A stretch of DNA of 64,000 bases, taken from assembly GCF_045037415.1 (NCBI RefSeq), contig NZ_CP173438.1, one strand, 5' to 3'. Positions 61,863 through 62,479 of the stretch are shown in pieces (position 1 is the stretch's first letter; each line of letters begins with the position of its first letter). This stretch comes from Escherichia coli. Its GTDB lineage: Bacteria > Pseudomonadota > Gammaproteobacteria > Enterobacterales > Enterobacteriaceae. The notes beneath the pieces are model-generated. The model saw only the letters and a program-made list of their open reading frames with translations. It did not search any database and was not told the DNA's origin. Both the position numbers and the translations under genes were made by a program.

Positions 61863-62479
61863 CCGTGGAAGTGCGTCCAGAGGATCTGGACGCCAATACC
61901 GATCAGTACCAGCCCACCGAGAATTTCCGCTTTTTTCCCAATAATTGAGCCGATAAAGCGACCAACCATCATCCCTAATGTCGACATAATCAAGGTTGCA
62001 CAACCAATGGCCAATGCGGTCGCGATAATGTTAACCTGCAGGAAAGCAAGACCAACACCCACAGCCATGGCATCCAGGCTGGTGGCAATCGCGGTGGTTA
62101 CCAGTAGTCAGAAACCGTGTCGACGGCGCGGTTCTTCATCTTCATCATCTGCGCCACGAAAACCCTCAATAATCATTCGCCCGCCGAGAAATATCAGCAG
62201 CACAAACGCAATCCAGTGGTTCCATTCAAGGACAAACCGACTGGCTAACATGCCCATTCCCCAGCCGATCAGCGGCGTCAGGGTTTCGACGGCACCAAAA
62301 ATAAGGCCGGTTCGCAATGCTTCAGAAAATTTCGGTTTATGGAGGGTGGCACCTTTACCGATTGATGCAGCAAAGGCATCCATCGACATACCAAACGCAA
62401 GAAGAACAGTAGCAGTGATATTCATGACAACGTCCTGACCGGGGTATCCATAAAACACATCATCGCCCCCAGCAAACAT
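61859..62479 (-). pseudogene. mntP: Manganese exporter MntP interrupted by an in-frame TGA (plus-strand 62108-62110)
   Basis: ORFs 62108..62479 and 61859..62068 are collinear and in the same frame; together they read ...[34 protein letters not shown]..., with the stop where MntP is recalled to have Trp. Confidence 0.8.

Follow-up and report, generated by a model that had tools for sequence, protein, structure and literature searches.

In Escherichia coli K-12, deletion of mntP makes cells hypersensitive to manganese: in the null mutant Mn accumulates, iron import is shut, heme synthesis stalls and there is no growth at 0.5 mM MnCl2 (PMC4361602, PMC10197570). A second Mn exporter, Alx, is weaker (PMC10197570), and the activity of MntP itself requires conserved membrane-embedded acidic residues, according to the work of Zeinert 2018 as cited in PMC10197570. 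The other described system relevant to our locus is a sublineage of the E. coli clone ST131, C2b, a label used in the report of a spinach ST131 isolate, in which 86 complete ST131 genomes were classified (PMC10591226, Table S1), and equated by the authors of that report with L1a, the papGII+ sublineage described by Biggel et al. (PMC9334617). C2b/L1a has been called emerging, global and enriched in bloodstream isolates, and the lineage has also acquired an island with papGII, hly and cnf1 as well as a multi-resistance transposon in the chromosome (PMC10591226, PMC9334617). Both papers define the sublineage without mentioning mntP. The window analyzed here, a stretch of 64,000 nucleotides from an E. 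coli genome (contig NZ_CP173438.1), carries an mntP gene with a premature stop codon. We put the probability at roughly 85% that a single, clonally inherited TGG-to-TGA change in ST131 C2b truncates MntP, with loss of export and Mn hypersensitivity as the expected outcome.

In the window, mntP occupies 61859..62425 on the minus strand, with 188 codons plus a stop and one interruption at codon 106. Translation of this interval yields 189 codons, in which a lone internal stop follows ...PRRRHGF, in addition to the terminal stop. Codons 103-109 read CAC GGT TTC TGA CTA CTG GTA, placing the premature UGA (context UUC UGA C) at minus-strand 62108..62110, i.e. 62110..62108 in the direction of reading. 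On the plus strand, position 62108 is T in the window versus C in the ST131 strains SK1144 and 4/1-1, which retain the ancestral TGG (Trp) codon, and the change corresponds to a G-to-A transition on the coding strand. The 188-residue sequence with Trp106 is filed in the protein collection as MNTP_ECOLI, and the UGA is the sole interruption in the 188 codons. An initial sequence-only reading of the window, which had described two collinear mntP fragments in the same frame separated only by the TGA at 62108-62110, and a single-base change from a Trp codon, was therefore accurate on both counts, as well as in its proposal that the C-terminal transmembrane helices are lost, since the stop removes positions 73-152 of the PF02659 model; comparison with the reference protein, which that reading had recommended, confirmed Trp at residue 106. 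Its estimate of a product of about 120 residues requires correction: counted from the annotated start at 62425, the truncated product has 105 residues, and a 123-residue open reading frame arises from an upstream in-frame ATG at 62479, within the mntP leader. The gene is thus an ordinary nonsense pseudogene, whose internal stop is already flagged in public annotation, and it has the hallmark of a unitary pseudogene in that the intact ancestral allele, one base away, is found in its closest relatives.

The gene order rlmA - mntP - yobD - manZYX in the window is the order annotated in strains 4433, SK1144 and 4/1-1. mntP is convergent with rlmA (61053-61862, plus strand), and there is no operon gene downstream of it. 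Just upstream of rlmA, an Rfam match to the cspA thermoregulator (135.6 bits) extends over the leader and gene of yobF - cspC/cspE at 60502-60962 on the plus strand. In one carrier of the mntP stop, AVS0151 (L006), a private G-to-T change at its position 19732, equivalent to window position 61806, falls in the convergent rlmA and shortens the annotated coding sequence from 810 to 756 nt.

We examined how widely the allele occurs. An allele-specific 35-mer spanning window positions 62091-62125, which seeds only if the T is present, had an exact match in 53 of 5,426 complete E. coli genomes, and a 69-base query centered on the stop site matched exactly in 53 of 5,413 complete chromosomes. The 53 carriers come from many laboratories and countries, and from human blood and urine, a dog, wastewater and a river. 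The exact 105-residue product is present on at least 1000 contigs; some submitters entered the two halves of mntP as two separate proteins, and in all four carriers inspected (4433, CUVET17-1136, AVS0151 and FCI29) PGAP labels the gene "manganese efflux pump MntP, pseudo, internal stop". The mntP locus as such is covered to at least 80% in 5,420 of 5,426 complete E. coli genomes (>99%), where it is present and largely uninterrupted, indicating that the gene is normally kept.

These counts bear directly on whether the stop might be a sequencing or assembly error in the window, the alternative that the sequence-only reading had left standing. The window does differ from its closest relatives by two private single-base indels, at 5097 and 63570, and its assembly may therefore contain some errors. 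The mntP change, however, is a substitution rather than an indel, and the same base recurs in 53 independent complete assemblies, in addition to the contigs, at least 1000 in number, that encode the 105-residue product. With so many independent assemblies carrying the same base, and with the internal stop flagged by PGAP in each of the four carriers inspected, we regard sequencing error as excluded for practical purposes and reject it as the cause of the stop.

Next, we asked to which lineage the carriers belong. Over 64 kb, the window is 99.992% identical to the O25b:H4-ST131 strain 4433, itself a carrier of the TGA, with three substitutions and two single-base indels between them. Table S1 of PMC10591226 labels seven RefSeq genomes C2b (p4A, p11A, THO-003, Ecol_AZ146, FDAARGOS_1265, SCAID WND1-2021 and TO217), and all seven are among the 53 carriers; conversely, none of the approximately 68 ST131 accessions assigned to other clades in that study (A, B, C0, C1, C2 and C2a) is found there. 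The non-C2b accessions SA186, 4/4, 2/0, 4/0 and Ecol_AZ159 each show one mismatch to the 69-mer, and in the C2a strain 4/1-1 the TGG at codon 106 was read directly. An assignment of the carriers to the C1-M27 clade was considered and dropped, as p4A and the six others are labelled C2b in PMC10591226. We then compared 40 kb centered on mntP between 4/1-1 and three carriers, isolated from a Thai dog, a Swiss river and a human patient in Colombia. Each carrier differed from 4/1-1 by the mntP SNP and by one to four private changes, and the mntP SNP was the only difference common to all three, which indicates a single clonal origin. The simplest reading is that one mutation occurred within ST131 C2 and was inherited clonally; the mutation would have arisen once and been passed down in C2b/papGII+ L1a. 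The near-identity to 4433, together with a derived allele common to 7/7 published C2b genomes, indicates that the window derives from a C2b member, and the allele, by the same genome comparisons, appears to be the inheritance of the whole ST131 sublineage and not private to the strain of the window. The mutation, its reality and its distribution over lineages can all be read directly from the genomes.

To define what the truncation leaves of the protein, we turned to the Pfam family PF02659. The reconstituted 188-residue sequence scores 187.4 bits against the model (gathering cut-off 24.4) and covers model positions 2-152. Scored separately, the N-terminal fragment reaches 85.9 bits and the C-terminal fragment 68.3 bits. 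MntP consists of two homologous halves: when residues 10-65 are aligned with the C-terminal half, Asp16 faces Asp118 (E=0.006 in a single comparison). We take these two to be the relevant membrane aspartates of MntP. The translated N-terminal remnant (62111..62425, minus strand; 105 residues) comprises the first repeat and the charged loop, corresponding to positions 2-72 of the 152-position model, and the stop falls on the first residue past that loop, leaving the first repeat as the only one in the product. Codons 107-188 (61859..62107, minus strand) form an untranslated C-terminal remnant which, by the repeat alignment, contains the second repeat including Asp118. An uninterrupted frame encoding both PF02659 repeats is thus lacking in the window, and the pattern of model coverage identifies its mntP as a probable pseudogene of the family rather than a functional member. 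This reading uses the Pfam coverage together with the repeat alignment, since a Kyte-Doolittle scan separated helices 1 and 2 poorly; a search for an experimental structure of the PF02659/MntP family found none.

With TGA at codon 106, translation from the normal start would end after 105 residues, and the product would contain the first membrane repeat, without its homologous partner, and the charged loop. Such a product should not export manganese, because the second repeat with Asp118, the counterpart of Asp16, is missing; the argument for inactivity of a half protein draws on homology and on published mutagenesis (Zeinert 2018, as cited in PMC10197570). We also considered that the N-terminal half might work as an antiparallel homodimer, and judged it unlikely, as this would need dual membrane orientation. 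The count of Lys and Arg residues, nine in the two presumed cytoplasmic loops versus one on the other side (with approximate helix boundaries), argues for a fixed, not a dual, orientation.

UGA followed by C is a weak termination context in E. coli, and the near-cognate Trp tRNA would restore the native residue; some full-length MntP may therefore be made. The stop would then be leaky, with Trp-tRNA reading the UGA and a few percent of normal MntP remaining, a hypomorph that is maybe sufficient in ordinary environments. Reporters in K-12 gave UGA readthrough by Trp-tRNA of about 2% at 37 °C and 4% at 25 °C (PMC10570021), and, with a promoter, a riboswitch and MntR-like boxes that look intact, induction of the gene by the riboswitch and MntR might make such a level enough. 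Those rates, however, hinge on the weak RF2 of K-12; where the more active RF2 of E. coli B was present, native genes yielded no detectable readthrough product (PMC5373646). The untranslated 3' half, moreover, may lower mRNA stability. To our knowledge, the weak RF2 is peculiar to K-12, and most non-K-12 E. coli have an efficient variant. On balance, we consider physiologically useful readthrough of the mntP UGA possible but unlikely, and a truncated, inactive product remains our preferred reading.

Selenocysteine recoding, or a split protein assembled from the N fragment and a re-initiated C fragment, appears far less probable still. The first in-frame ATG 3' of the stop is codon 120, 39 nt on, and the 69-residue open reading frame that starts there, which covers PF02659 positions 90-152, is called as a gene by some pipelines. 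Codon 120, however, is not preceded by a Shine-Dalgarno-like sequence, and it lies beyond Asp118, such that a re-initiated fragment would lack this residue and half of the fourth helix. The 63 nt that follow the UGA are no more stably folded than shuffled sequences (z = -0.76), and an Rfam search of 60000-64000, in which the cspA element alone reached its gathering score, revealed no recoding element. The sequence 3' of the stop is identical to that of TGG genomes, suggesting that nothing has evolved to support recoding. With no structure after the UGA and no Rfam match there, we rejected selenocysteine insertion and other forms of recoding.

The region upstream of the truncated frame retains what look like the elements of manganese control. 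A candidate Mn2+ riboswitch aptamer (yybP-ykoY, RF00080) lies in the mntP leader at 62556..62652 on the minus strand, with 40.9 bits and E=1e-9, just short of the gathering score of 45. Between the aptamer and the start codon, a consensus scan identified a terminator-like hairpin with a T-rich tail (62499..62514, minus strand), which is likely the expression platform, and 5' of the riboswitch there are putative sigma-70-like promoter hexamers (62695..62723, minus strand), from the same type of scan, with 9/12 matches, a level not above shuffle expectation. Further upstream, two palindromes at 62788-62807 and 62828-62847 resemble MntR boxes; no other site in the 64 kb matches the MntR box consensus AACATAGCNNNNGCTATGTT with up to three mismatches, 0.23 matches being expected by chance, and we treat the two as putative sites. 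The promoter, the MntR-like boxes and the Mn riboswitch look intact, which, next to a broken frame, is what a recent loss would leave. Between mntP and yobD, the window also carries a private A-to-G change at 62736, 13 nt upstream of the promoter-like -35 hexamer and between that hexamer and the MntR-like boxes; the full 69-mer with this change had no match among complete genomes.

Several other features of the window were recorded. At 63570, in manZ (minus strand, running off the window end), the window has a one-base deletion and reads GCGAGA-ACC where all relatives examined have GCGAGAGACC. The manZ frame changes after residue 216 of 283 and closes 21 codons later, and none of the 5,419 complete E. 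coli genomes with a match has the deletion; either the mannose PTS IID subunit may truly have been lost in this strain alone, or the assembly may be wrong here. In the prophage, the tail-tip gene J (3697-7170) is split into three frame segments and has an extra T at 5097; strain 4433 lacks that T, and its gene J is likewise annotated as frameshifted, which makes J a pseudogene in the two strains, with one additional indel in the window. Substitutions relative to 4433 include Glu247Gln in znuA (26270) and a synonymous change in edd codon 500 (35010). By correspondence with the annotation of 4433, an IS1397 (IS3 family) copy lies at ~22374-23722 in the ruvB-znuB interval. At 12619-14518 on the minus strand, a reverse transcriptase (PADLOC RT_UG17, 527 bits) adjoins a SLATT-domain protein (RTasSLATT, 191 bits), and the two form a DRT-type anti-phage defence pair, located beside yecD where a lambdoid prophage ends.

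For C2b carriers, Mn hypersensitivity is predicted by analogy with K-12 deletion mutants. Without MntP-dependent export, carriers would depend on repression of the importers and on Alx, and would be hypersensitive to excess manganese; loss of function and phenotype are what we infer from the genome data described above. The persistence of the allele in a globally successful lineage implies that its cost in nature must be small, as would be the case if MntP is irrelevant in those niches or if some function remains. A pandemic extraintestinal pathogen thrives without an intact MntP, though more than 99% of complete E. coli genomes keep the gene largely uninterrupted, and the loss in C2b raises the question of how important Mn export is away from laboratory culture.

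One could go further and propose that the loss was adaptive, in that more cytoplasmic Mn would aid the bacterium under host Mn withholding and oxidative stress and thereby help the papGII+ expansion. This would accord with the protection against H2O2 stress that Mn gives E. coli (PMC4361602, background) and with fixation of the allele in an emerging, global and bloodstream-enriched sublineage (PMC10591226, PMC9334617). The papGII/hly/cnf1 island and the chromosomal resistance transposon, however, suffice to explain the success of the lineage, which makes hitch-hiking the default, and a lone SNP on a clonal background is indistinguishable from a hitch-hiker. The allele has one origin, and there is no sign of convergent loss across the 5,420 of 5,426 genomes in which mntP is largely uninterrupted. 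We therefore hold adaptive loss to be improbable. Similarly doubtful is the broader proposition that MntP loss was an adaptive step in C2b/L1a or that the UGA makes MntP conditional on the level of readthrough; if true, either would provide a natural, epidemiologically successful test of why E. coli keeps a Mn exporter.

Irrespective of its physiological effect, the mntP stop looks like a clean marker of an expanding ST131 sublineage and is apparently unremarked in the literature we searched: among papers naming mntP and ST131, judged mostly by their titles, we found no description of the allele as a lineage marker. As it matches 7/7 published C2b genomes and 0/~68 other ST131 accessions in the table of PMC10591226, the SNP could serve for typing this bloodstream-associated sublineage.

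Taken together, the locus can be compared with three described systems. MntP (YebN) of K-12, of family PF02659, is encoded at the same locus between rlmA and yobD, with putatively the same control elements upstream (an Mn riboswitch-like leader, MntR-like boxes), and the protein of the window is identical to it except at codon 106, where the UGA leaves 105 of 188 residues makeable from the normal start. With the ΔmntP mutants of K-12 (Waters 2011; Martin 2015, PMC4361602), C2b would share the expected loss of MntP-dependent Mn export, and the same chain is predicted, from Mn overload through Mn-Fur repression of iron import to failure of heme synthesis; C2b differs from these mutants in carrying a natural, possibly leaky point mutation in a B2/ST131 clinical background, which according to the literature also has the SitABCD importer (PMC10591226). 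Finally, the known markers of C2b/L1a are TnMB1860 near metG, a pathogenicity island (PAI) with papGII-hly-cnf1, and F(31,36):A(4,20):B1 plasmids, all of which lie outside the 64-kb window. The mntP stop has the same distribution where cross-checked, and it would differ from these markers in kind, as a chromosomal loss-of-function SNP alongside acquired elements.
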